From contig CAYUGX010000003.1 of NCBI GenBank assembly GCA_964444375.1, forward strand, positions 1 to 46,858: DNA of 46,858 nt, written 5' to 3'. How positions within the stretch are numbered: the first letter of the stretch is position 1; each line of letters opens with the position of its first letter. The notes below the pieces were generated by a model that ran no database searches, was not told where the DNA came from, and was given only the letters and a program-made list of their open reading frames with translations. This document shows positions 1,273 through 46,390 of this stretch, piece after piece. This DNA is from an uncultured Porphyromonadaceae bacterium. Its GTDB lineage: Bacteria > Bacteroidota > Bacteroidia > Bacteroidales > UBA12481. The position numbers were made by a program, and so were the translations under genes.

Positions 1273-3543
1273 ATGTATAAAAGCCTGTTGTTGAGTTTAG
1301 CATGGCTCTTGCTGATTATTTCAGGATGCTCCAATGACAAATTAGTGCAATTTCAAACCGAATTCCTGGAGATAGAGATCAATCGATCAGGCTACATCAC
1401 CAGTCTGCAAAATATCTCTGTATCACCGCCTGTAGAGTTCAGTCCCGTCGAGAAACCTTCTCCAATCATGAGACTCTATAATCAGAAAGAAGAGCAATAC
1501 TTTGATCCGGTATCAGCTAGCTTTGATGATAGCGAGAATAAGCTTATCCTGAGCTATCAAAACGGAAGTGAGGCAGTTGTTTTGATAGAGTCAAAAGATA
1601 AGTACCTGAAAATGTCCTTGCTAAGTTTGTCGAATCGCCAGCAAATTGAAGGTATTCAGTGGGGATCTATATACACCAACATCAGCAATCTGTTTGGTGA
1701 AATCATCGGTGTTGCCCGTGATACATCTGATGCAGTCAATTATGCGATCGGCCTTTTGTCACTTGACGAGAATACCATTGGTGGATTGTCTGAAACCATA
1801 GCTGATGCAGCACCATTTCAATACCTCATACATTCTCCGGATCCAGAGAAATTCCCCCTGCCTGATTCTTTGTATGAAGGACAAATCTTTACTTTGGGTG
1901 GTGATGGTATCAGTGATGTGGCTTTTTATGCCCACAAGGAACCATACTTTAGAATCTTGTACGGTAATGCTGCTCTTGTTGATGATCAGGGTAGAATCTC
2001 TATCACATACCATTCACGCGACAGAACATACGAACGAGAAGTATACTATTCTTTGATACCCAACATGCCGGCAAATTCACCAAACCATTTGTTTGTCGAA
2101 GCCATTCCGGGAGTAAATTACATCGGTTCATCTGTTGCCCTGTGGGGAAGCCCTGACAGCACTGCATTATTAGACGTTGTTCAGGATATCGTGCTGAAAG
2201 AAGGCTTACCCTATCCCACTTTTAATGGGAAATGGGTAAAGGATCCATCTGCCTATATGCCGGATGTGTTGACAAGTGGAGGAGTATATGACAGTGTCCT
2301 GTCTTACACACAGCAACTTGGCTTCAAAGCCATCAGTCTTTATGATCAGGGTTTTATAAGACCAGATCGAGGCAATGAAGGCTACATCGATGGAAAAGAT
2401 TTCGAGCGAAAACCCATCAAACTATCATCCGGTAATTTATCCCATAAAGAGTTCTCAAAACTGGCAGCCGAAAAAGGCATCATCATTGGTCGAACACCCA
2501 TCACAACCGCCCTGGCTCCTGGTACTAAGGATGCAAGTCCCATTCCAAGTGACAGTCTTTGCTATCAGCAAAAGCGATTGTTGATGAACAACATAGGCCC
2601 CTCAGATACCCTGATTCAAGTTGATGATCCGAAACATCTTGAAGAAATTGCCTCCTGGGAAGGACACGCCAAAAACCTGAACATGATCAAAATAGGCAAG
2701 GAACTAATCCACTACCTGGGTGTTTCAGATGATGAACCCTACCATCTGCTCAATGTGGTTAGGGGATATTGGAACACTGAGCCAACTGCTCATTCTAAAA
2801 ATGAAACCATTTTCAAGCTTCAGGTAACCTTGAATTATGGATACGATGGATTGATCCCCAATATCCATTTGCAGGATAAAATCGCTGCTTATTATGCTGA
2901 CCTGTGCGCTATCAATGGGCTTGGCTACTATGATTTCGACGGTCAGGAATTCTTGTTTAACAACGGACATGGCTATTACTCAGCCAAACGCTTCTTCAGA
3001 AAAATGTTTCAGCGTGCCCATGAACTTGGCTTACCTGACATCAGGTTTACAGGAGCGACTCTATCAGAAGGTTCATGGCACTACCAGAGCATTTGGAATG
3101 TTGGAGGAGGTAAAAACCTTTATGACGTAGATACCCGTGAATGGGGAAGTACAACCAGTCAAGGAAAAGACCTGAGAGATGTAACCTATGCGAACTTCTT
3201 TCCGGTAAGCTGGGGAGGAAACTTTGCGATCAATGCAAACTCAACAGTTGAACAATATGAACACATACAAGCCATGTCGGTTGGCGTTGGTGTTACCTAT
3301 AGTCTCATATTAAATCAAAAGGATGTCGAAAGTTGTCCGCAAAAATACGAGATATTCAAAACGATTCGAACCTGGGAAAACGCGAGAGCGGCTGATGCAT
3401 TTCCTAGAAACACTAAAAAGCTTCTAGCAATTCCTGAGAAAAGCTGGAGATTGGAAGAAATTAATGGAGATCAATGGAATTTGCATGAGATGGCTGAAGG
3501 TCAAATCATTGATACATTTCTATTGACGTCATCCAATAACTAA
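1273..3543 (+). CDS. Lipoprotein of unknown function (no recognisable domain; candidate carbohydrate-active enzyme by context)
   Basis: 756-aa uninterrupted ORF. The N-terminus MYKSLLLSLAWLLLIISGCSN is a signal peptide with a lipobox (ISG|C). It is packed tightly between two secreted glycan-active genes (9-nt and 20-nt spacers). I recognise no catalytic motif. Confidence 0.6.
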   Translation: MYKSLLLSLAWLLLIISGCSNDKLVQFQTEFLEIEINRSGYITSLQNISVSPPVEFSPVEKPSPIMRLYNQKEEQYFDPVSASFDDSENKLILSYQNGSEAVVLIESKDKYLKMSLLSLSNRQQIEGIQWGSIYTNISNLFGEIIGVARDTSDAVNYAIGLLSLDENTIGGLSETIADAAPFQYLIHSPDPEKFPLPDSLYEGQIFTLGGDGISDVAFYAHKEPYFRILYGNAALVDDQGRISITYHSRDRTYEREVYYSLIPNMPANSPNHLFVEAIPGVNYIGSSVALWGSPDSTALLDVVQDIVLKEGLPYPTFNGKWVKDPSAYMPDVLTSGGVYDSVLSYTQQLGFKAISLYDQGFIRPDRGNEGYIDGKDFERKPIKLSSGNLSHKEFSKLAAEKGIIIGRTPITTALAPGTKDASPIPSDSLCYQQKRLLMNNIGPSDTLIQVDDPKHLEEIASWEGHAKNLNMIKIGKELIHYLGVSDDEPYHLLNVVRGYWNTEPTAHSKNETIFKLQVTLNYGYDGLIPNIHLQDKIAAYYADLCAINGLGYYDFDGQEFLFNNGHGYYSAKRFFRKMFQRAHELGLPDIRFTGATLSEGSWHYQSIWNVGGGKNLYDVDTREWGSTTSQGKDLRDVTYANFFPVSWGGNFAINANSTVEQYEHIQAMSVGVGVTYSLILNQKDVESCPQKYEIFKTIRTWENARAADAFPRNTKKLLAIPEKSWRLEEINGDQWNLHEMAEGQIIDTFLLTSSNN

Positions 3544-3563
3544 TAGGTAAGAAGTACAAAAAA

Positions 3564-6533
3564 ATGAAATACTATAGTACTGCACTACTATTGTCATTAG
3601 TATTAGTAACTACCCCTTCAATTTGTCAAAATCCTTCTCAAACCGAAAGAAACAACTTTATCGATCGGCTGGAATATGGTGAATCTCTAACAGTTTCAGC
3701 CCTGGGCACAAGTCTGACAGGCGGGAGATGGCGGTGGTTTGATGTCTTGCAGGAAGGGCTGGAAAGAGAATATCCACGACAATGCACTTTTATTAATGAA
3801 GGAGTTGGCGCCTCTGCATCTTCACATCCGGAAGGTAAAAGTGGAATTGACAAGGCAATGCACTTATCTATCAGCAATCCAGATGTTGTTTTTATTGAAT
3901 TTGCGATCAATGATGCCTATAAACCTTATGATATCTCTGTTGAAGAAAGTGGGAACAACCTCATCGAAATAATCAATATCCTCAAAAGCAAAAATCCCGA
4001 TATCGAAATCATTCTTCAAACAATGAATCTGGTTATTGACATGCCTGAGCACGGCACCAGTGAAAGCACAGCTAGATCAGATTTACAAAGTTATCTTGAG
4101 ATATATCGCAGGATAGCCCAGGAACTAAATCTATTGTTAATCGATCATTATCCAAACTGGGAAAAGTTCTACAAGGACCATGGCAGAGATGCGTACATTC
4201 AACTAGTTCCAGATGGTATACATCCCAGATTGGAAGCTTACAGACAAATTTTGCTTCCAGAACTTAAATCATCTCTTATAAAAACGAAATGGTTAGGTGA
4301 TGGCATTTCTGAACAGATGGTCATTCCTGAATTGGATCATTTTTTACAGGTTTTGAACGGCAAGTTCAGGTTGATGCTATGTCAGTACGAAAAATCACAA
4401 TTGTTACATCAGCAAGCTATTGGAAATAATGGATTAACCACTAAAGGGTATGATTGGAGGATATCCACAAAAACTACACCCATAGAAGACGATCCAACAG
4501 GAATGGATGTGTCAATAGAATTGACACTACAAAACGGATCAATTGCCCAGGCAGGATTTGCAGTTGCTTTTGATTTTACCAATTGGGATTTTGAAAACTA
4601 TATTTTGTTACCGGCAGCAGTTTACAATGGAAACCGGCATCAGATTGTAAATAGGGGCTATGCCGAAGGCATTGATCGAAAATACCTTTATCAGGAAGAC
4701 CTCTCACTGATGTCTGTACCAATTCCCCATCTTTCTGCGAAGAATGGCTCGATCTCTCGGCTGGAAGTTAATTCAAGTAATCTGGCCACACCAGCCATGT
4801 GCTTTTTTGATAAATCAAGGAAGATGGGTTTTATCCTGCTCGCAGAACAGAAAACGGCAAATTCGGATAATGGGTTCATTGTTGAAGAAAGCACTGATCG
4901 CACCAAAGCAAGTTTCGTTTTAGCTGCTCCGGGAGTCAGAGCAAAGCGTCCACTCTTCGTTGGTTTTGCTGAAAGTAGAGACCGGGGTGTTGATTTCATG
5001 AACGGCGATCGCATTATTCTGAATTTCAACGTTTATTCTTTCAAATGCCATGATATTCCTGCATTACTGGAGAAATTTATGACGATAAGAAAATCTTTGA
5101 CAGGACAGAATGATCCGCGAAATCTTATCCCCCTCAGTCAAACAGCCTATTGGATGACCCAAAGAATTGATGAAAGATGGTACGCTGATGATCATTTTCA
5201 ATTCTATTTCCCTGAAAATGCCAACTGGATCTCATTCGGATGGATAGGTGGTTTAATCAATACCTATCCAATGATCGCCCTTGATGATGATTTCCATTTT
5301 GATCGCGTGAAGAAGACCTTTGATTTCGCCATCCCCAGGGCTCAGGGTGAATCAGGCTATTTTTACGGCGCCTTAAATTATGACGGAAAGCCATTTAGCA
5401 GGGACGGGTATCCTGAGATTCCGGAAATTGTCCTGACCAGGAAAAACGCGGATGTTTTATACTGGATGATCAAGCAGTTTGAACTTCTGAAACAACAGAA
5501 TCGATCAGACCAAATAAACCCAACCTGGCACATGAATATCAAGCGATTAGCCGATGCATTCGTCTCCACATGGGTAGTCCATGGGCAATGGGGAAAATCA
5601 CTGGATAATCAAACCGGGGCTGTTGCAGAGTTTAATACTTCTGGAGGCGTCATGGCAATTGGAGGATTAGCCCTAGCCTCAGAGTATTACAGAAATCCTG
5701 GGTATCTGGATATCGCCAAGAAATCGGGGAACTATTACTTTGATGAATACTTTGTAAAAAAGGGTTTCACAAATGGTGGTTGCGCTGACATATTACACAA
5801 TGCAGACTCAGAAACAGCCGCTGGTTTGATGACGTCGCTAATAACACTCTATGAAGTTACTGAGGATCGAACCTGGCTTCAAAAATCACGAAGTGTAGCC
5901 AATCTATGTGCAACCTGGACTACCTCCTACGATTATGAGCTCCCTGAACATACTGAACTCGCTCAACTTGGAGCCAAACTCGCCGGGATCTATTGGGCTA
6001 GCACGCAAAACAAACACGGTGCACCAGGTATTTGTACGAATTCCGGCGATGCCTTGTTTAAGATATACCGTGCCACAGGGCTTACACGATATGCAGATTT
6101 GCTTAAGGATATTATTCATGCACATGGTGAAAGCATACGTCCCGGAGGCTATACCAATGAACGCTTGACCTACTGTGATGCTGAGAGTCAAGGAGAAAGA
6201 GGAAATCATGTAACAGGCTGGAACGAACTAAACGGCTTACTTATGGCCTTGGAAATTCCGGGGATTCATATCATCACAGACTCAGGAAAGCGCTACGTTT
6301 TTGATCATCTTGAAATCGATGAGCTTAAAGAAATCGATGGTGAAATGATCCTGGGGATACACAATCCGACTCCATTTGACGCCAAGACACGTCTTCTTGT
6401 AGAATCTGTCAAACAATCTCAAAAACCACTGAAGATCAATGCATTCACGAAGTGGCCAATCATTGAAGTCCCAACAAACGAGACGGTTAACATAAAAATT
6501 GATGCATCTGGCAATTGCATTTTATTGAAATAG
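3564..6533 (+). CDS. Secreted SGNH/GDSL-type esterase fused to a ~740-aa C-terminal domain (probable alpha/alpha-toroid glycan-processing module)
   Basis: 989-aa ORF with signal peptide MKYYSTALLLSLVLVTTPSICQ. SGNH blocks are visible: SALGTSLTGG (block I Ser), GVGASAS, VVFIEFAINDAY, PDGIHP (block V Asp/His). The remainder is helix-rich (e.g. SETAAGLMTSLITLYEVTEDRTWLQKSRSVANL), which is suggestive of a six-hairpin fold. The family is not identified. Confidence 0.6.
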   Translation: MKYYSTALLLSLVLVTTPSICQNPSQTERNNFIDRLEYGESLTVSALGTSLTGGRWRWFDVLQEGLEREYPRQCTFINEGVGASASSHPEGKSGIDKAMHLSISNPDVVFIEFAINDAYKPYDISVEESGNNLIEIINILKSKNPDIEIILQTMNLVIDMPEHGTSESTARSDLQSYLEIYRRIAQELNLLLIDHYPNWEKFYKDHGRDAYIQLVPDGIHPRLEAYRQILLPELKSSLIKTKWLGDGISEQMVIPELDHFLQVLNGKFRLMLCQYEKSQLLHQQAIGNNGLTTKGYDWRISTKTTPIEDDPTGMDVSIELTLQNGSIAQAGFAVAFDFTNWDFENYILLPAAVYNGNRHQIVNRGYAEGIDRKYLYQEDLSLMSVPIPHLSAKNGSISRLEVNSSNLATPAMCFFDKSRKMGFILLAEQKTANSDNGFIVEESTDRTKASFVLAAPGVRAKRPLFVGFAESRDRGVDFMNGDRIILNFNVYSFKCHDIPALLEKFMTIRKSLTGQNDPRNLIPLSQTAYWMTQRIDERWYADDHFQFYFPENANWISFGWIGGLINTYPMIALDDDFHFDRVKKTFDFAIPRAQGESGYFYGALNYDGKPFSRDGYPEIPEIVLTRKNADVLYWMIKQFELLKQQNRSDQINPTWHMNIKRLADAFVSTWVVHGQWGKSLDNQTGAVAEFNTSGGVMAIGGLALASEYYRNPGYLDIAKKSGNYYFDEYFVKKGFTNGGCADILHNADSETAAGLMTSLITLYEVTEDRTWLQKSRSVANLCATWTTSYDYELPEHTELAQLGAKLAGIYWASTQNKHGAPGICTNSGDALFKIYRATGLTRYADLLKDIIHAHGESIRPGGYTNERLTYCDAESQGERGNHVTGWNELNGLLMALEIPGIHIITDSGKRYVFDHLEIDELKEIDGEMILGIHNPTPFDAKTRLLVESVKQSQKPLKINAFTKWPIIEVPTNETVNIKIDASGNCILLK

Positions 6534-39233: not shown

Positions 39234-40103
39234 ATGAAAAGCAGAAGAAGTTTCATCAAACAGGCAAGTCTATTAACCGCAGGGAGCTTTTTCGCCCCCC
39301 AATTATTATCCAGCTGTGCATCAGGAGTGAAAAACATCGGGCTGCAATTGTATTCGTTACGGGGCATGGTACAGCAAGAAGGGATTCAGGCAACCCTCGA
39401 CCTGGTTGCCGAAATGGGTTATAAAAACCTGGAAACTGCAGGATATGGCGATGAGAAAATATATGGTCTGACTCCAGGCGATTTTATGAAACGGGTTGAA
39501 GATCTCGGCATGAAAGTCACCAGCGCTCACCTAGGACAAGCCTACACGAAAGGCGAAGAAGAAAAGGTCATGGATTGGTGGAAAATGGCCACTCAGGCAC
39601 ACCAAGATGCCGGAATGTCGTATATGATCATGCCCTGGATGCCAGTCGGTGAAAAAAGTGAACTCGATGAATTAAAACGGTACTGCGATTATTTCAATCA
39701 GGTCGGCGAAATCACCAGTGATGCCAACATCAACTTCGGGTTTCATAACCATGCAGGAGAATTTAAAAAGATCGGAGACCACGTCATATTTGACTATATG
39801 TTAGCCAATACCGATCCGAAAAAAGTTTGCTTCCAATTAGATGTGTATTGGTGTCAGGTCGGTGGTGCCAATCCGGTTGAATACCTCAAAAATTATAAGG
39901 ATCAAATTCTGATTACCCACATCAAAGACGAAAAAGAGATCGGTGCCAGTGGCACGATGGATTTTGAAGCCATCTTCAATCAGATGTACAAAAACAAAAT
40001 TAAAGATTGGTATGTGGAGGTTGAGCGTTACACGAACAACGATCCAAAGGCCAGCGTGCAGGAGAGTTTTTCCTATTTGAATGCCGCAGAGTATGTGAAA
40101 TAG
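39234..40103 (+). CDS. TAT-exported xylose-isomerase-like TIM-barrel protein (sugar phosphate isomerase/epimerase family)
   Basis: 289 aa with the canonical twin-arginine signal MKSRRSFIKQASLLTAGSFFAP. Family-type segments are present: GYKNLETAGY, FGFHNHAGEF, QLDVYWC, ITHIKD, WYVEVE. Confidence 0.65.
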   Translation: MKSRRSFIKQASLLTAGSFFAPQLLSSCASGVKNIGLQLYSLRGMVQQEGIQATLDLVAEMGYKNLETAGYGDEKIYGLTPGDFMKRVEDLGMKVTSAHLGQAYTKGEEEKVMDWWKMATQAHQDAGMSYMIMPWMPVGEKSELDELKRYCDYFNQVGEITSDANINFGFHNHAGEFKKIGDHVIFDYMLANTDPKKVCFQLDVYWCQVGGANPVEYLKNYKDQILITHIKDEKEIGASGTMDFEAIFNQMYKNKIKDWYVEVERYTNNDPKASVQESFSYLNAAEYVK

Positions 40104-40107
40104 ATTA

Positions 40108-40554
40108 CTAGATCTTCTTCACTTTAACAGCATTCATCCCTTTCAACCCTTTCATAAGCTCAAAGGAGACCTTATCGTTTTCGGTTATCTCGTCGATAAG
40201 CCCATTAACGTGGACGAAATATTTTTCATTGGTTCCCTGTTCTCTGATGAAACCGAAACCTTTTGAGTGATTAAAGAAATCAACTTTACCTTGTCGCACC
40301 GCATCTTTTTCAGAGTCTTCTTTCTTCGGAACGCTAATCTCAATATCATCTAGACTCACCTTCTTCTTTTTACTTGGATCAATTGGTGTATCCGTGAGAT
40401 TCCCATTTTCGTCGACATAGGCCAGCATATCCTCAAATCCTGAGCTTTTTGCATTAGCTCTCCGTTCTTCAAGCTTCTTCTTCTTGTCTTGCCGTTTCTT
40501 GATCCGTTTTTTTTCCTTTTCCTTCTTGTTAAATGTTTCCTGCGATTTACCCAT
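40108..40554 (-). CDS. Cold-shock-domain protein with an ~80-aa Lys/Glu-rich N-terminal extension
   Basis: 148 aa. The N-terminus is KKEKEKKRIKKRQDKKKKLEERR. The C-terminal CSD has an RNP1-like KGFGFI and an RNP2-like YFVHV. Its stop lies 4 nt from the convergent TIM-barrel gene stop. Confidence 0.75.
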   Translation of the reverse strand: MGKSQETFNKKEKEKKRIKKRQDKKKKLEERRANAKSSGFEDMLAYVDENGNLTDTPIDPSKKKKVSLDDIEISVPKKEDSEKDAVRQGKVDFFNHSKGFGFIREQGTNEKYFVHVNGLIDEITENDKVSFELMKGLKGMNAVKVKKI

Positions 40555-40632: not shown

Positions 40633-40784
40633 CTGAGACTATATAAAATACTTTGCTCTGTGAGATCGAAAAATCCATGAAAACAGGGCAACTCGGCATG
40701 AATAAGTTAAACCAAATTCAATAGAAGTTGTATATCTGTATCACAAACGACACTATTGTTCGCGACATTTCAAATCATCTGACC

Positions 40785-41267
40785 ATGAAAAATACTTTTT
40801 ATACCTACGAGGCAAAAAGCCTGCAAGGAAAAAACATCAGCATGGAATACTTTAAGGGAAAGACTGTGCTCGTAGTCAATACGGCAAGCAAATGTGGATT
40901 AACTCCTCAATTTGAAGGGTTGGAAGCCTTATACCAAAAGTACAATGAAAAAGGATTGGTCATTTTGGGCTTTCCGTGTAATCAGTTCGCTAATCAGGAA
41001 CCTGGTGATGAAAAATCAATTGAAGAAGGGTGTCTGTTAAACTACGGCGTAACTTTCCCCATGTTTGCAAAAATCGATGTAAACGGGGCGAGTGCCCATC
41101 CACTTTATAAATACCTGAAAAGTCAATTAGGCAGTCCCTTGGGAAGAAAGATCAAGTGGAACTTCACGAAGTTTCTGATTGATCCCGACGGTAAACCCAT
41201 TAAGCGTTTCTCACCCACAACAAAACCAGAACAGATTGACAACTATTTGTCAAAGAAACTCACTTAA
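40785..41267 (+). CDS. Glutathione peroxidase (Cys-type)
   Basis: The ATG at 40785 gives MKNTFYTYEAKSLQGKNISM (the listed start at 40728 is a TTG). Motifs seen: VVNTASKCGLTPQ (peroxidatic Cys), LGFPCNQF, WNFTKFLI. Confidence 0.85.
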   Translation: MKNTFYTYEAKSLQGKNISMEYFKGKTVLVVNTASKCGLTPQFEGLEALYQKYNEKGLVILGFPCNQFANQEPGDEKSIEEGCLLNYGVTFPMFAKIDVNGASAHPLYKYLKSQLGSPLGRKIKWNFTKFLIDPDGKPIKRFSPTTKPEQIDNYLSKKLT

Positions 41268-41414
41268 CCTCTTCGAACAGAAAGAACAATGACATTCCAG
41301 TAAAACTGTCACAGCGATTACTTGGCGCGTAGTTCAGAGATGTTATTCATTTTTTTCACGAAAGTAGGGTGTTTTGAGTTTTCAATCGGTATTAGGTTGA
41401 GTTTAACTTAAAAA

Positions 41415-42431
41415 ATGAGAAAAATGAGCAAGCTTTTTAAATTTACGACCATCTTGTTACTGAGCATATCAGTGACCGGATTAATGAGTTCTTGTGACAA
41501 AGAAATCGACACCCTAAGCGAGGATTTAGACCTCTTAGAACTGAAGTCATCTGAAGATGATGAAAGCGGAGATGACAGACAAGGTGATAAAAAGCGAAAC
41601 CATGGCAAGAAGTCTTGTTTCGACATAGTCTATCCAATATCAATGACTTTGCCTGACGGAACTGTAATCACTGGTGAAAGAGATGAACTGCATGAAAGCA
41701 TTAAGGAATGGCGCGAAGCCAATCCGGATGTGAAAGAGAAACCACAAATCAACTTCCCAATTAGCAATCAAAACACATCAGATGAAGAGAATGTGGATCC
41801 AGAAACAGTAGAAATTGCTGATGAAGAGGCTTTAAAAGCGGCGATTGAAGCTTGTCCCAAAGGCGATAAAGGCAACAAAGATCGAAGAGGACATGGAAAG
41901 AAAGCCTGCTTCAAAATAGTCTATCCTATTTCCATGACTTTACCCGATGGTGAAGTAGTCAGCGGTGACCGGAAAGAATTGGATGAAGCCATTAAGGCTT
42001 GGCGTGAGGCCAATCCGGAGGTGAAAGAAAGACCTCAGATCAACTTCCCAATTAGCATTCAATATCCTCCTGAAGAAGATGGTGGTGATCCGGTGGTAGT
42101 TGAAATTGCTGACCACGATGCGCTTGAAGAAGCCATGAAAGCATGTAAAGATGATAATCGCGATGACAAAAAACCCAGAACGTGTTTTAAAATCGTATAT
42201 CCCATTTCTATGACCCTACCGGATGGATCCGTTGTCAGTGGTGACCGGAAAGAACTGAATGAAGCCATTAAAGCCTGGCGCAATGCCAATCCGGATGTGA
42301 AGGAAAGAGCTCAGCTAAATTTCCCTTTAAGCGTTGAGTATCGTCCTGTAGAAGAAGGAGGAGATCCCGTGGTGGTAGAATTTGCCAGCCAGGAAGAATT
42401 TGACCAGGCAGTTGAAGATTGTGGTAAATAA
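41415..42431 (+). CDS. Lipoprotein made of an acidic linker plus three tandem 80-aa Cys-bracketed repeat modules; function unknown
   Basis: 338 aa with signal/lipobox LLLSISVTGLMSSC. There are three modules of the form CF-x-IVYPISMTLPDG-x-V-x-G-x-R-x-EL-x-E-x-IK-x-WR-x-ANP-x-VKE-x-PQ-x-NFP...DP-x-x-VE...C. Each is preceded by a basic Lys/Arg linker. Confidence 0.75.
   Translation: MRKMSKLFKFTTILLLSISVTGLMSSCDKEIDTLSEDLDLLELKSSEDDESGDDRQGDKKRNHGKKSCFDIVYPISMTLPDGTVITGERDELHESIKEWREANPDVKEKPQINFPISNQNTSDEENVDPETVEIADEEALKAAIEACPKGDKGNKDRRGHGKKACFKIVYPISMTLPDGEVVSGDRKELDEAIKAWREANPEVKERPQINFPISIQYPPEEDGGDPVVVEIADHDALEEAMKACKDDNRDDKKPRTCFKIVYPISMTLPDGSVVSGDRKELNEAIKAWRNANPDVKERAQLNFPLSVEYRPVEEGGDPVVVEFASQEEFDQAVEDCGK
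41616..42422 (+). repeat. Three tandem 240-nt coding repeats (41616-41855, 41907-42146, 42183-42422)
   Basis: Hand alignment of the 80-aa modules gives 53/80 identities for R1 vs R2 and 57/80 for R2 vs R3. The nucleotide sequences differ at many synonymous positions (e.g. gtctatccaatatcaatgact / gtctatcctatttccatgact / gtatatcccatttctatgacc). This indicates an old duplication kept by selection on the protein. Confidence 0.9.
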
Positions 42432-42459
42432 ACATGGTTTGGATTGTGTAATTTAGTGC

Positions 42460-42494
42460 GGTGCTGATCTGGGAGAATTTTCCGGATCAGCACC
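42460..42494 (+). terminator. Strong stem-loop downstream of the repeat-lipoprotein gene, overlapping the candidate GTG start of the ECF sigma gene (terminator or attenuator)
   Basis: GGTGCTGATC (42460-42469) pairs perfectly with GATCAGCACC (42485-42494). The stem can extend through a U-G wobble and two G-C pairs. It lies 29 nt after the stop at 42431. No U-tract follows. Confidence 0.4.
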
Positions 42495-42994
42495 ATTCAA
42501 AACAATCAAAACACGCAGCCTTGACCAGAGAAACATTCAAATACGTGTACGATCAGTTTGCAGGTGCCATAAGGAACTACATCTATTATCGCTCTGGCAA
42601 TACTAGCCTTGCCGATGATATCACCCAGGAAACCTTTATCAGAATCTGGGAGAAGCAGATCACATACGATGAAAAGAAAACCAGGTCATTGCTGTATAAA
42701 ATTGCCAACGACTTCCTTATTGATCACGTCAGGAAACACAATATTCGGATTGAATATTTGAGTGATTTGAAATTCAGACTAAAGGCAGATCTGGAAGAAT
42801 CAAAAGATCAGGAGATGATGAGACAAAAATGTGAAAAAGCCTTATCCGTGCTGACAGAAAAGGAAAGGATAGTATTCCTGATGAGCAAAAAAGACGAGAT
42901 GAAATATAGCGAAATCGCTGAGTGTTTGAACATAAGCAAGAAAGCAGTTGAAAAACGTATGAGTCAGGCCCTAAAAAAAATGAAGTTAAAGTAA
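42461..42994 (+). CDS. ECF-type RNA polymerase sigma-70 factor
   Basis: Region 2 is ADDITQETFIRIWEK...LYKIANDFLIDHVRK. Region 4 is ALSVLTEKERIVFLMSKKDEMKYSEIAECLNISKKAVEKRMSQALKKM. There is no in-frame ATG near the 5' end, so the start is either GTG 42461 (inside the hairpin) or TTG 42521. Confidence 0.75.
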   Translation: MLIWENFPDQHHSKQSKHAALTRETFKYVYDQFAGAIRNYIYYRSGNTSLADDITQETFIRIWEKQITYDEKKTRSLLYKIANDFLIDHVRKHNIRIEYLSDLKFRLKADLEESKDQEMMRQKCEKALSVLTEKERIVFLMSKKDEMKYSEIAECLNISKKAVEKRMSQALKKMKLK

Positions 42995-42995
42995 A

Positions 42996-43835
42996 ATGAA
43001 AAAACATGATGACATAAAAGACTACTACCATCAACTTGAAAGCCCTTTTGAGCAGAGTGAATCAGAACTTTGGGGGAAAATTAGTACCCAGATCGAAGAT
43101 CGATCACCAACAAAAACCAGAAGTCTGGCCTGGATCCAATACGCTGCAGCAGCTGTAGTTCTTCTTTTAATTAGTACCGGTGCATTCGTACGGTTCTACT
43201 CCAAAACAGTCTCAACTGAACGGGGAGAACACCTGGCCATTGCACTACCCGACGATTCATCGGTAGAATTAAACGCAGAATCTATCATACGATATAAACC
43301 GTATTGGTGGAAGTTTCAACGTGAAGTTAAATTGGAAGGAGAGGCATTTTTCCTGGTTGAGAATGGGTCAACATTCAAAATACTTTCAAGAAATGGGATC
43401 ACTGAAGTTGTAGGAACCAGTTTTAACATTTATGCCCGTGGTCCAGATTACCGTGTGTTCTGTCAAACCGGACGAGTTAAAGTTATGAATGTTGATGTCA
43501 CCGAAGAATTACTCCTAAATCCGGGTGAGCTAGGCGTTATTAGCACAGAAATTAAACGCCCTCAAATACAGAGTATTGAGGCAGAAAAAATCATCTCCTG
43601 GTTAGACTATGAGTTCAATTTCATTTCAGAACCATTAACGCAGGTGATTGAAGAAATTGAAAGACAGTTTAATGTAGATATTCAATTGGATTTGACTCTG
43701 CCAGAAGAATTACTTTATACAGGCTATTTCGCTAAAACTTCATCCGTTGAATCAGCGCTAAACCTGATCAGCAAAAGTTTTAGTATTACCTTTGAGAAAA
43801 TACGAACCGGAGTTTATGTACTGAAAAACGAATAG
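42996..43835 (+). CDS. FecR-family transmembrane anti-sigma factor
   Basis: 279 aa. The ATG is 1 nt after the sigma stop. It has a single TM helix (LAWIQYAAAAVVLLLISTGAFV). The FecR domain reads LPDDSSVELNAESIIRY...VKLEGEAFFLVENGSTFKILS...VVGTSFNIY. Confidence 0.8.
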   Translation: MKKHDDIKDYYHQLESPFEQSESELWGKISTQIEDRSPTKTRSLAWIQYAAAAVVLLLISTGAFVRFYSKTVSTERGEHLAIALPDDSSVELNAESIIRYKPYWWKFQREVKLEGEAFFLVENGSTFKILSRNGITEVVGTSFNIYARGPDYRVFCQTGRVKVMNVDVTEELLLNPGELGVISTEIKRPQIQSIEAEKIISWLDYEFNFISEPLTQVIEEIERQFNVDIQLDLTLPEELLYTGYFAKTSSVESALNLISKSFSITFEKIRTGVYVLKNE

Positions 43836-43897
43836 TATGATTACATGCTTACGCTGAATAATTGAAGACTATCAGATCAAATCAAAATAATGTAGTT

Positions 43898-46390
43898 ATG
43901 ACAGCAACTTTAGGCAAAATCCTGCTTAAAGTTTTTGTCGTTCTATCCTTTTGTTTTTTTTCAATGGCCCAAAGCCATGGGCAGATTATCAGAATCAATG
44001 TTGAAGAGAAGCCGTTATATGAAGTCCTGGTTGAGCTAAATCAAAACTATGGAATCCAGTTTTCTATGGACCATAGAATTGGAACCGGTTGTTTAATAAC
44101 AGAATCGACTGGCTTTCAAAATGCTGAAGCTGCCATTCAGGAACTGATTGGTAGATGCAATTTAAGGTATGAAATCATAGAGGGTGTATTTATCATCAAT
44201 AAAAAACCAAAAGAAAATTACAAGAAACCCAGGCCGGTAACGCATACCTATTCAGGACAATTAATTGATGCTTTTAATACGGAACCCTTACCCTATTCAA
44301 ACCTGGTTCTCAACGAGACAAATCTGATTGCCGATGCCAATGGTAACTTTTCATTCATCACGGGCAATGAGAATGAAAGACTTAAAGTATCTTATGTAGG
44401 CTACTATCAACTTGATACCATCATTACAAAAGGGAACAATCAACAAATCAAACTAACCCCTTCAATTATTGGTCTAAATGAAGTTATTGTTACTTCCGAT
44501 GCGAATGTGATGAATGCAGTAACTGGTGAAAAATCAGGCCTCATTAAGATAAATCAACAGGTAGCTTCCTTTCTGCCTGGTAATCGGAACAATACCTTGT
44601 TTAACATGCTGCGCCTTCATCCGGGTATATTGGCAGCTTCTGAGCAAACAGGTGACTATAGTTTTTGGGGTAGCTATAGAGGTCATAACCTGGTTCTTTT
44701 CGATGGTATTACCCTTTTCAGCGCTAGCAGTCTAAATAATGAGATTGGCGTGGTCAATCCTTTAATGGTAAAAGACATTGAGGTCTTAAAAGGTGGCTAC
44801 GATGTAGATCAAGGTGATCGAGTAGGCGGCATCGTAAAAATGACCGGCCTTTTTGGAAGCGACAAAGATTATATTGCCAAACTGAATGTAAATAGCCAAA
44901 CAGTCAACGGATACCTCAACGTACCTGTGGCTCATAGAATTGCTGTTCAGGCCGCCGTACGGCAATCTTACTATCAACTATTGGATTGGAGACAAATACT
45001 CACTAAGGTATCAGATGATAAAGGCAACGCCTATTATCCAGAAAACGCCTTCCGTGATGCCAATTTTAAAGTTTCGAGCCGTACCAAGTCAGGCGATGAC
45101 ATCATGATTAGCCTGATCGGTGCGAATGAAAGTTCTGCGGTAAAAGCTTTTAACAACAACGGTAATGAGGAAATCCCATGGGAGAGAAGTATTGAGAAGC
45201 AACAATGGGGGGGGAGCATAAACTATTCTAGAAATTGGAACCGGGCTGGACGAACACTGCTCAAGACAGCCTATACCAGCTTAAAGAGCAATTCATTCGA
45301 CCGGAAAGCCAATATCCAGAATCAAGGCCAGGGCCAGAACAACAAAAGAAGCTACTTTAGGTATAACTCTATCAGGGAATTATCATTTAAGGTCGATCAC
45401 CAGTTACCCACTGTAGGCAGTCACTCTTTGAAAGCTGGTGTAAGTGCCACGGGGAATGCCGGTAGTTTCATTGAAGATATAGTCAAAATTCTAAATGCCG
45501 ATCAGATTAAACTGGCCCCCCGCTATAGTTTATATATCAAGGATCTCATCACCATTGGGGAACACATAGATATTCAACCTGGGGTGAAATTCGACTACAT
45601 TCCCGTTTTGAAGCAGCAATATTTGCAACCCAGGATGGATGCAAATATCTCCTTAAATCAAAAATGGAGAATCAATTTGGCCTGGGGCTTGTACAACCAG
45701 TATATCTCTGAAGTGGCTGTGTACGATGATCTCCAAAATGTACATTACTTCTGGGATGTAGTGGATACACCTGACTCAAGAGTATTGCAGGGCATGCACA
45801 GTGTATTGGGGCTAGCCTACAAATTCAATGGTCTTGAATTCAGTTCTGAAGGATTTTACAAGACAACCGACAATCTTAGCAGGTTAAACATAGATCCGAA
45901 AACCAGAAACCTTCGGATTCGTTATGGCAATGCCAGATCTTATGGGATTGATTTTTACATCAAAAAGGAGCTTAATCAGCACGATCTCTGGATCTCCTAT
46001 ACAATCAGTCGAACTGAGGAAAGCTTTCCTGAATACGGCCAAAAGGAATATCTGCGTGCCATTCATGATCAAACGCATGAAGTCAAAGCCGCAGGCATCT
46101 TCAATCTGAAACCATGGTATTTTTCAGTCAATTATATTTTTGGTTCTGGTTTAGTGAATTCTCTGAGAACCCCCGAGGACAAGATTATCCCCTACAATCG
46201 ACTGGATGCAGCCCTACTCTACAGGTTTAATACTAAAAGTTTCAACCTTGAGAGTGGGCTTTCCATTGTCAATGTGCTCAATACAAGAAACTTAGGCTAC
46301 AGTGGTTTCTCCAACCTACTGGATGGCCGTAAATTGTACGCCAGAAGTATTCCGTTTACACCCAGCATATTTCTAACCATTAGTTTTTAA
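43898..46390 (+). CDS. TonB-dependent receptor with an N-terminal STN signalling domain and a carboxypeptidase-regulatory-like domain
   Basis: The ATG at 43898 gives the signal peptide MTATLGKILLKVFVVLSFCFFSMAQ (the listed start at 43862 is a TTG). It has an STN-like segment (INVEEKPLYEVLVELNQNYGIQFSMD...VFIINKK) and a CarbopepD_reg-like segment (YSGQLIDAFNTEPLPYSNLVL...ANGNFSF). It has plug motifs (VEVLKGGYDVDQGDRVGG) and a terminal beta-strand ending in F. Confidence 0.75.
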   Translation: MTATLGKILLKVFVVLSFCFFSMAQSHGQIIRINVEEKPLYEVLVELNQNYGIQFSMDHRIGTGCLITESTGFQNAEAAIQELIGRCNLRYEIIEGVFIINKKPKENYKKPRPVTHTYSGQLIDAFNTEPLPYSNLVLNETNLIADANGNFSFITGNENERLKVSYVGYYQLDTIITKGNNQQIKLTPSIIGLNEVIVTSDANVMNAVTGEKSGLIKINQQVASFLPGNRNNTLFNMLRLHPGILAASEQTGDYSFWGSYRGHNLVLFDGITLFSASSLNNEIGVVNPLMVKDIEVLKGGYDVDQGDRVGGIVKMTGLFGSDKDYIAKLNVNSQTVNGYLNVPVAHRIAVQAAVRQSYYQLLDWRQILTKVSDDKGNAYYPENAFRDANFKVSSRTKSGDDIMISLIGANESSAVKAFNNNGNEEIPWERSIEKQQWGGSINYSRNWNRAGRTLLKTAYTSLKSNSFDRKANIQNQGQGQNNKRSYFRYNSIRELSFKVDHQLPTVGSHSLKAGVSATGNAGSFIEDIVKILNADQIKLAPRYSLYIKDLITIGEHIDIQPGVKFDYIPVLKQQYLQPRMDANISLNQKWRINLAWGLYNQYISEVAVYDDLQNVHYFWDVVDTPDSRVLQGMHSVLGLAYKFNGLEFSSEGFYKTTDNLSRLNIDPKTRNLRIRYGNARSYGIDFYIKKELNQHDLWISYTISRTEESFPEYGQKEYLRAIHDQTHEVKAAGIFNLKPWYFSVNYIFGSGLVNSLRTPEDKIIPYNRLDAALLYRFNTKSFNLESGLSIVNVLNTRNLGYSGFSNLLDGRKLYARSIPFTPSIFLTISF

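Follow-up and report, generated by a model that had tools for sequence, protein, structure and literature searches.

A gene at 41415..42431 (+) in a 46,858-nucleotide (nt) stretch of DNA from an uncultured Porphyromonadaceae bacterium (GenBank assembly GCA_964444375.1, contig CAYUGX010000003.1; the whole stretch is referred to as the window) encodes a lipoprotein made of three copies of an unrecognised 80-amino-acid (aa) module. It heads a four-gene unit on one strand, in which it is followed by genes for an extracytoplasmic function (ECF) sigma factor, a FecR-type anti-sigma factor and a TonB-dependent receptor. The module belongs to a large family with a confidently predicted fold, its genes are found beside ECF sigma genes in several lineages, and candidate sigma-specific promoters precede them. 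The lipoprotein is best read as a flexible partner of the TonB-dependent receptor with several domains, induced by the sigma factor and probably exposed at the surface.

The Cys-bracketed module and its family

The open reading frame (ORF) listing and its translation give a 338-aa product with Cys at positions 27 (lipobox, ...LMSSC), 68/147, 165/244 and 257/336. The protein consists of three modules of exactly 80 residues, each with only two Cys, at its first and last positions. The tether after the lipobox Cys is acidic and begins DKEIDTLSEDLDLLELKSSEDDESGDD, and basic stretches stand ahead of modules 1, 2 and 3 (...KKRNHGKKS, PKGDKGNKDRRGHGKKA and KDDNRDDKKPRT, respectively). A first-pass annotation of this DNA had described three Cys-bracketed 80-aa modules, with an acidic linker after the lipobox and a basic linker before each module, and this description is borne out by the translation and the Cys positions. 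The parts of the gene are listed below, with values of the predicted local distance difference test (pLDDT) from the full-length structure model.

41415..41495 (+): signal peptide and lipobox, residues 1-27, ...GLMSSC27, from the translation
41496..41615 (+): acidic tether, predicted disordered, residues 28-67; starts D-K-E-I-D (export-signal-like) and ends basic; pLDDT <50 for residues 1-66
41616..41855 (+): module 1, residues 68-147, Cys68...Cys147
41856..41906 (+): basic linker 1, residues 148-164; pLDDT <50 for residues 150-162
41907..42146 (+): module 2, residues 165-244; predicted strand-strand-strand-helix, twice
42147..42182 (+): linker 2, residues 245-256; pLDDT <50 for residues 247-254
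42183..42422 (+): module 3, residues 257-336

The identity between modules was 66% (1-2), 59% (1-3) and 71% (2-3) at the protein level and 72%, 64% and 75%, respectively, at the DNA level. An earlier hand alignment had put the protein identity at 66-71%, which holds for pairs 1-2 and 2-3 and fails for pair 1-3. Different codons were used at 42-49% of the residues identical between modules. Nei-Gojobori estimates ranged from 1.35 to saturated for synonymous divergence (dS) and from 0.17 to 0.30 for nonsynonymous divergence (dN), with a dN/dS of 0.12-0.16, indicating that the module duplications are old and under purifying selection. Recent slippage as the origin of the repeats, against which the first-pass annotation had also argued, was ruled out by these values.

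The module recurs as 724 full-length copies in 229 related proteins, and the repeat is far beyond chance. Both bracketing Cys were present in 698 of the 724 modules, neither in 22 and a single one in 4. Such presence or absence of the two together is expected from a disulfide joining the first and last residues of the module, in agreement with the one disulfide per module suggested before.

AlphaFold2 modelling of module 2 with a 132-module alignment returned a strand-strand-strand-helix arrangement occurring twice (pLDDT 94.6; predicted template modelling score, pTM, 0.74). Alignment of the first half of the module with the second by hhalign gave a probability of 98.5% (E 2e-15), indicating that the halves are homologous, that the basic unit is about 40 aa long and that each 80-aa module is a tandem duplication of this half-unit. 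Distant relatives, such as P0079 and P0084, are made of runs of half-units. The commonest module length in the family is 75 residues, and the 80-aa form of the window has a 5-residue insertion in the second hairpin. In the full-length model (pTM 0.31), the modules mostly had a pLDDT of 80-92 (module 1 mostly 81-86, down to 61 at the loop of its second half), and the segments marked in the list fell below 50. The model fits a lipid-anchored, flexible string of three independent domains, like beads on a string. The modules are highly acidic, and the linkers, taken over the whole family, are enriched in D, G, H, R, K and W. His/Gly-rich linkers between modules were seen in some members (L088, L105, P0002 and P0003), for example GHHPGHGGQHGSHGHSG and EGHHGHHG; such linkers may hint at metal binding.

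No individually significant match to Pfam-A (2025 copy) or NCBIfam 20.0 was found for the window lipoprotein and seven homologues. The best sub-threshold matches of the window lipoprotein were DUF3322, with 24.2 bits and no significant stretch, and FliX, with 23 bits where the cutoff is 192. DUF3322, Acyl_transf_1, SH3_3 and FliX were rejected for the lipoprotein and its homologues as repeat-summed fragments or as falling below cutoffs, and DUF7092, PB1 and DUF7767 in the homologues were rejected as sums of 20-25-residue fragments with 0 significant stretches. PDB sequences searched with the 132-module profile gave no credible match (best E 0.097). Foldseek against the PDB found no relative of the module model (best E 0.79, template modelling (TM) score <=0.34) or of the full-length model (best E 0.61); its nominal top matches, African swine fever virus (ASFV) E146L, FakB1 and WWE, all had E>0.6 and TM<0.35 and were discarded. 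The sequence searches and the Foldseek comparison of a single module, which the first-pass annotation had proposed, uphold its view that the domain is an unrecognised one. Every source name on the homologues was 'hypothetical protein', and in the literature searched neither the family nor the promoter motifs reported below were found described.

A word-indexed search returned 87 close homologous proteins, and an exhaustive profile search returned 2,099 clusters (50% identity) at an E threshold of 1e-3, of which 1,504 also passed 1e-10. The number of modules per protein, another point raised by the first-pass annotation, was 1-8 by the module hidden Markov model (HMM), with a mode of three. The carriers include Saprospiraceae/Lewinella, Polaribacter and other Flavobacteriaceae, Roseivirga, Cyclobacteriaceae, Cytophagales, some Bacteroidales and Neomarinimicrobiota. 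In one homologue (L080 2710-3369), a single module is followed by an unrelated Cys-rich C-terminal region, so the module is found in other domain combinations too. Many members (P0002, P0003, P0019, P0042, P0050, L034, L068, L071 and L076) carry an extra N-terminal domain of about 100 aa before the modules, which is lacking in the window lipoprotein; its pattern is ...ALP..A...L..D......LGYEV......YFD.DGREL, and it looks PepSY-like by eye, with no Pfam match.

Spurious summed Pfam scores, as seen here, are common for repetitive proteins and could be taken to mean that the repeats are an artefact, produced by recent slippage, located in non-coding DNA or part of a degenerate protein of low complexity with no specific role. 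However, dS is saturated with a dN/dS of 0.12-0.16, about 2,100 homologous clusters exist in Bacteroidota and Marinimicrobia, the module fold is predicted confidently, and the Cys pair, the promoter and the hairpin described below are all conserved. The artefact reading is already refuted by these results, and its probability is regarded as practically nil.

The sigma unit, its candidate promoters and an intergenic hairpin

An ECF sigma/FecR/TonB-dependent receptor unit had been claimed directly downstream of the lipoprotein gene, and all three members were confirmed by domain matches. The features of the unit are as follows.

41364..41390 (+): candidate ECF-sigma-dependent promoter GTAGGG-N17-CGGT, starting 51 nt before the lipoprotein ATG, with an A/T-rich tract upstream
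42460..42494 (+): GC-rich stem-loop of 15 base pairs (bp), lying between the lipoprotein gene and the sigma gene; terminator- or attenuator-like, or an RNA 3'-end stabiliser; no U-tract
42521..42994 (+): ECF sigma factor, 157 aa from TTG 42521; Pfam Sigma70_r2, r4 and r4_2
42996..43835 (+): FecR-type anti-sigma factor with one transmembrane helix; Pfam FecR 2.7e-13, FecR_C 2.7e-10
43862..46390 (+): TonB-dependent receptor (ATG 43898 as alternative start); CarbopepD_reg_2 3.3e-10, Plug 6.4e-7, barrel
43982-44209 (+): STN-like N-terminal extension of the receptor, about 76 residues ahead of CarbopepD_reg_2

The sigma factor matched TIGR02937 (sigma70-ECF superfamily) with 72.9 bits against a cutoff of 42.9, and FecI models with 68-72 bits, below their equivalog cutoffs. 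The listed start of its ORF, GTG 42461, lies inside the hairpin stem. The alternative TTG 42521 (TTGACC...) is the more plausible start, and TTGAC(A/C) recurs at the equivalent position in related loci. The distance from the sigma stop to the start of the FecR gene is 2 nt.

The N-terminal extension of the window receptor, taken alone, had no Pfam match. After alignment with 17 related receptors, 14 of the 18 extensions matched FecR_C and 7 matched STN, and the extension profile matched the PupA signalling domain 2a02 (E 0.0017) and the C-terminal domain of a Bacteroides anti-sigma factor, 4m0n (E 7e-4). As judged from these matches, the receptor is most likely a signalling transducer. PDB sequences searched with the receptor as query gave no match. 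Against the SusC/RagA model TIGR04056 the receptor scored 36.1 bits, in the CarbopepD region only and far below the cutoff of 368, so that it is not a SusC/RagA member. No SusD gene was found after the receptor gene in four related loci (L007, L010, L012 and L016), which agrees with the earlier description of a triad without a SusD partner. The window ends 468 nt past the receptor gene, with only a minus-strand ORF in that interval.

The association with sigma units was analyzed in related DNA. Among seven metagenomic neighbourhoods, a sigma gene was adjacent in five and the full triad in four. The gene order of the window was found in P0019; P0027, P0031 and the distant P0084 are divergent and adjoin sigma-FecR-receptor; in P0002, sigma is followed by small unrecognised ORFs; and P0017 lies at a contig edge. 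The loci with sigma-FecR-receptor beside the lipoprotein gene are L007, L010, L012 and L016, and in L001 a sigma gene is beside it.

The genomic sample, with one genome per species, was drawn with the back-translated DNA pattern W.EANPD....P...[FY]P, which yielded 98 loci and biases the sample toward modules with that motif. The loci are blocks of 8 kilobases (kb) that are not centred on the gene and many neighbourhoods are incomplete, so that the association counts are lower bounds. A true module gene was present in all 98. An ECF sigma gene was no more than 800 bp away in 41 loci, of which 25 had the two genes in divergent orientation, 11 had the lipoprotein gene upstream on a common strand and 5 had it downstream; at a limit of 3.5 kb the number rose to 48 loci. 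Of the 50 sigma matches in 688 kb, just 2 were farther than 3.5 kb from the lipoprotein gene. When a sigma gene within 3.5 kb, a receptor gene or a strict promoter motif was counted, 65 of the 98 loci were positive, as were 28 of the 39 with both flanks visible. Bacteroidetes carry a mean of 22.5 ECF sigma factors per genome (PMC7826278), which, for an assumed genome of roughly 4,000 genes, puts chance adjacency at an estimated value of about 1%. The association of the lipoprotein with sigma units is therefore strong; it spans several lineages and is not universal. To the question, put in the first-pass annotation, whether ECF, FecR and receptor genes are always adjacent, the answer is that adjacency is frequent and that exceptions such as P0050 exist.

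The layouts vary: a FecR/receptor type, a Dma-like type, a type with a short anti-sigma factor, and loci with the lipoprotein gene directly upstream of a receptor gene (L088 and L105). In some Saprospiraceae, the sigma gene is followed by a gene for an anti-sigma factor of about 500 aa with a C-terminal outer-membrane barrel and then by the lipoprotein gene. A Dma-like anti-sigma factor and the lipoprotein, with no receptor, were found in L039, L071, L076, L080 and L110; L088 has a barrel anti-sigma factor (OMP_b-brl_2 3.4e-10) and a receptor gene after the lipoprotein gene. In Polaribacter, the order is sigma, an anti-sigma factor of about 180 aa and the lipoprotein.

The Dma-like proteins (about 480-530 aa; L039 1971-3479, L071 949-2403, L080 1230-2678, L110 1085-2611 and L088 826-2409) are built of a cytoplasmic N-terminal part, a single transmembrane helix, a long linker that is coiled or of low complexity, and an OMP_b-brl or OMP_b-brl_2 barrel at the C-terminus. 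This is the dual-membrane-spanning anti-sigma architecture reported for Dma of B. thetaiotaomicron, occurring here outside Bacteroides. An ORF of 155 aa stands between sigma and FecR in L007 (6714-7181(-)), L008 and L009, with a match to PhageMetallopep (E 7e-4) below cutoff. In L088, a 437-aa ORF (2644-3963(+)) between the Dma-like anti-sigma and lipoprotein genes has a zinc-metalloprotease motif, HEVGHWLGLRH, recognised by eye. Pfam scans of the extra N-terminal domain, of the small ORFs after sigma in L001 and of the Polaribacter anti-sigma factor gave nothing interpretable.

Two-block motifs that differ between lineages were found upstream of the lipoprotein genes. GTAGGG-N15-17-CGGT occurs once in the window, at 41364-41390 (0.09 occurrences expected). 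All 13 loci that share the gene order of the window have the motif, which begins 51-70 nt ahead of the ATG, with an A/T-rich tract in front of it. A search of 932 kb on both strands gave 19 matches, each of them immediately ahead of a module-lipoprotein gene and in its orientation, and the non-redundant set had 16 matches against 1.1 ± 0.8 in dinucleotide shuffles.

A second motif, GAGTACA-N15-19-CTTA, was found upstream of the lipoprotein gene in Saprospiraceae/Lewinella (39 matches against 1.2 ± 1.0 expected). Another copy of it occurs directly after the sigma stop in 12 loci (L012 7313-7339(-), L019 3097-3123(+), L031, L038, L049, L058, L082, L086, L097, L108, L113 and L114), in 9 of which a same-strand FecR gene comes next, usually followed by a receptor gene. 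Because the motif stands before the lipoprotein gene and before the FecR/receptor genes, one promoter type would be common to both, with the sigma gene skipped. The sigma gene thus appears not to be autoregulated in the Saprospiraceae layout, unlike in the layout of the window. Some lipoprotein genes in blocks without a visible sigma gene, for example L040, L069, L093 and L107, have the GAGTACA motif in front of them as well.

Marinimicrobia homologues have a classical ECF promoter, GGAAC-N16-CGT, upstream. In Polaribacter (L029, L034, L050, L068 and L112), a block TTTCAAACTATT...GT(A/G)GTTCTAA...AGAAAC stands about 40-90 nt before the lipoprotein ATG, and this block, in the layout of sigma, short anti-sigma and lipoprotein, may be a third lineage-specific promoter. 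The position, the conservation and the two-block geometry of the motifs suggest that they are read by the adjacent sigma factor. A scan of 41100-44000 for sigma-70-type promoters and intrinsic terminators gave results no better than shuffles, and none of the sites that it listed lay at the lipoprotein promoter or the intergenic hairpin.

The 89-nt intergenic RNA between the lipoprotein and sigma genes had a folding energy of -33.8 kcal/mol (z -4.9), and 0 of 200 shuffles folded as well. A strong hairpin within 140 nt of the lipoprotein stop was present in 13 of 14 loci with the gene order of the window, and its sequence was not conserved. An Rfam scan of 41200-42700 found no family, with a sub-threshold microRNA match on the hairpin only. 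The effect of the hairpin is likely partial termination or 3'-end stabilisation, either of which would leave the lipoprotein message in excess over those of sigma, FecR and the receptor. A hairpin-driven excess of this kind is analogous to that of binding-protein genes in transporter operons.

Farther upstream in the window, as judged by eye from the translations, 40728-41267(+) looks glutathione-peroxidase-like, 40108-40554(-) is Lys-rich with a cold-shock-like C-terminus, and 39234-40103(+) resembles a sugar-phosphate isomerase with a Tat signal. These three neighbours show no evident link to the sigma unit.

Predicted surface exposure and proposed role of the lipoprotein

A lipoprotein-type signal was found in 212 of 228 complete family members (93%). 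After the lipobox Cys, K stands at +3 in 50%, D/E at +4 in 61% and D/E at +5 in 42%, and at least two acidic residues fall in +2..+7 in 160 of the 212 members with a lipobox. The optimal lipoprotein export signal found experimentally in Capnocytophaga canimorsus is C-X-K-(D/E)2-X; it is enough to bring a lipoprotein that faces the periplasm to the cell surface, and lipoproteins of that orientation lack it (PMC5080379). The N-terminal consensus of the module family matches this Bacteroidota surface-export consensus, and at the family level the lipoproteins are predicted to be surface-exposed. The N-terminus of the window lipoprotein, C-D-K-E-I-D (K at +3, E at +4, I at +5 and D at +6), is a near match to the export signal.

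The imperfect match in the window would also suit a lipoprotein on the periplasmic face of the outer membrane that binds the periplasmic domain of FecR or the STN domain of the receptor and acts as a co-anti-sigma or feedback element, and so would the co-encoding and apparent co-regulation of the lipoprotein with sigma and anti-sigma factors in three anti-sigma architectures. However, the family consensus matches the surface-export signal reported absent from periplasm-facing lipoproteins, the variable copy number (1-8) and the long flexible tethers would be unusual for a stoichiometric regulator, and the hairpin implies production in excess of sigma and FecR. A periplasmic regulator is regarded as improbable.

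In the preferred reading, of a sigma-induced surface partner of the receptor, the lipoprotein gene would be the first and most strongly expressed cistron of the four-gene unit, driven by the sigma-specific GTAGGG-N17-CGGT. A ligand at the receptor would be signalled via the STN-like N-terminal domain to FecR, which would let the sigma factor go, and the freed sigma factor would boost transcription of all four genes. Because of the hairpin that follows its gene, the lipoprotein would be in excess over sigma, FecR and the receptor, and the Bacteroidota export signal would cause the lipoprotein to be flipped to the cell surface. There it would serve as a tethered multivalent arm that captures or presents the substrate of the receptor, in a role like that of SusD, HmuY, BtuG and XusB. 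The regulatory part alone, in which the sigma factor induces the lipoprotein, is held to be highly probable. The complete chain, from induction through surface export to a tethered multivalent capture or presentation partner of a SusD-less receptor, is a serious candidate whose prospects are judged slightly short of even. One possibility for the ligand is a cationic or metal-containing compound, given that the modules are acidic and that His/Gly-rich linkers occur in some members (L088 and P0002).

Several observations weigh against this reading. No sigma gene, receptor gene or recognised motif was found in 33 of the 98 loci, nor in 11 of the 39 with both flanks visible, and the abundant marine P0050 subfamily is without a nearby sigma gene. 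Some members stand behind sigma/anti-sigma pairs of the Dma-like or short type with no TonB-dependent receptor at all, so that a receptor-partner role is impossible for those members. The export signal of the window lipoprotein is one acidic residue short, at +5. The conserved residues are mostly structural (Pro, Gly, the hydrophobic pattern and Cys), with no obvious ligand site among them except W-x-E-A-N-P-D. No inner-membrane transporter or catabolic gene was seen with the unit in the window and the related loci, and the promoters are candidates, assigned by conservation and position.

The loci without a receptor favour a different role, in which the lipoprotein is a dedicated, envelope-acting output of the sigma factor (in vesiculation, surface charge, cation buffering or adhesion) and the receptor is only the sensor, on the model of NigD1/NigD2 under Das1-Dma1. 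The same family follows sigma and Dma-like barrel anti-sigma factors in L039, L071, L076, L080 and L110, and sigma with the anti-sigma factor of about 180 aa in Polaribacter. In B. thetaiotaomicron, uncharacterised lipoproteins make up most of the Dma1-Das1 regulon, and one of them is encoded beside the pair, as judged by gene number (PMC10927553). The highly acidic modules, the linkers rich in D, G, H, R and W, and the lack of inner-membrane transporter or enzyme genes seen with the unit would also agree with an envelope output. On the other hand, the majority architecture shares a promoter type between the lipoprotein and FecR-receptor genes, and the lipoprotein gene lies directly upstream of the receptor gene in L088 and L105, both of which fit a partnership with the receptor; no similarity to the NigD domains was found. 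An envelope output is the main rival but is considered rather unlikely, and partnership with the receptor is retained as the best explanation.

Relation to known systems and significance

The window unit resembles FecI/FecR/FecA-type signalling and its Bacteroidota version with an ECF sigma factor, an anti-sigma factor and a SusC-like protein (FecI-like clade ECF239-243) in that it encodes an ECF sigma factor, an anti-sigma factor with FecR/FecR_C domains and a receptor with an STN-like extension, with a sigma-type two-block promoter before the target genes. It differs in that the unit and its presumed regulon include a fourth conserved gene, that of the repeat lipoprotein, and in having no inner-membrane transport genes. 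Further differences are that the sigma gene of the window appears to be autoregulated from the lipoprotein promoter, whereas the Saprospiraceae motif skips the sigma gene, and that the receptor is not SusC/RagA by score and no SusD is present.

The TonB-dependent transporters of Bacteroidota are capped or fed by surface lipoproteins such as SusD, HmuY, BtuG and XusB. Like these, the window lipoprotein has an export-signal-like N-terminus and its gene adjoins, and appears co-regulated with, that of a TonB-dependent receptor. Unlike them, the module family had no sequence or fold similarity to any solved structure in the PDB searches, is predicted to form a flexible string of 1-8 small disulfide-closed domains instead of a single globular lid, and has some members that occur without any receptor.

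The Das1-Dma1 system of B. thetaiotaomicron is a sigma/anti-sigma pair whose regulon comprises mainly uncharacterised NigD lipoproteins (PMC10927553). The module family is similar to it in that an uncharacterised Bacteroidota-specific lipoprotein would be the main output, encoded beside the pair, and a subset of the family lies directly after sigma and Dma-like barrel anti-sigma genes. It differs in that Pfam scans of the window lipoprotein and seven homologues gave no NigD_N or NigD_C match, and the window unit has FecR and a receptor in place of a Dma-type anti-sigma factor.

Systems of the ECF sigma/FecR/TonB-dependent transducer type are already known, and accessory surface lipoproteins are a familiar concept. 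The module domain with its apparent fold, its membership of the sigma unit and the promoter motifs are new. Units of ECF sigma factor, FecR and TonB-dependent receptor are among the most numerous regulatory modules of Bacteroidota. According to a review, no member of the large ECF240 group had been studied experimentally (PMC7826278). The present analysis adds a large protein family, with some 2,100 clusters at 50% identity, that has no Pfam or NCBIfam model and a confident predicted fold without a solved relative, and evidence that the module lipoprotein is a conserved, co-regulated member of ECF/FecR/receptor units. The candidate sigma-specific promoters, in at least two lineages, make regulon prediction and reporter assays straightforward, and cultured carriers exist in Polaribacter, Lewinella and Portibacter.

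More tentatively, the module of about 75-80 aa may have an undescribed fold and define a new class of sigma-induced, surface-tethered multivalent capture proteins that serve SusD-less signalling receptors and, in other lineages, Dma-type systems, and would then be an overlooked fourth component of cell-surface signalling in marine Bacteroidota and Marinimicrobia. If the lipoprotein is indeed the substrate-capture arm, its ligand would show the purpose of the SusD-less receptors.

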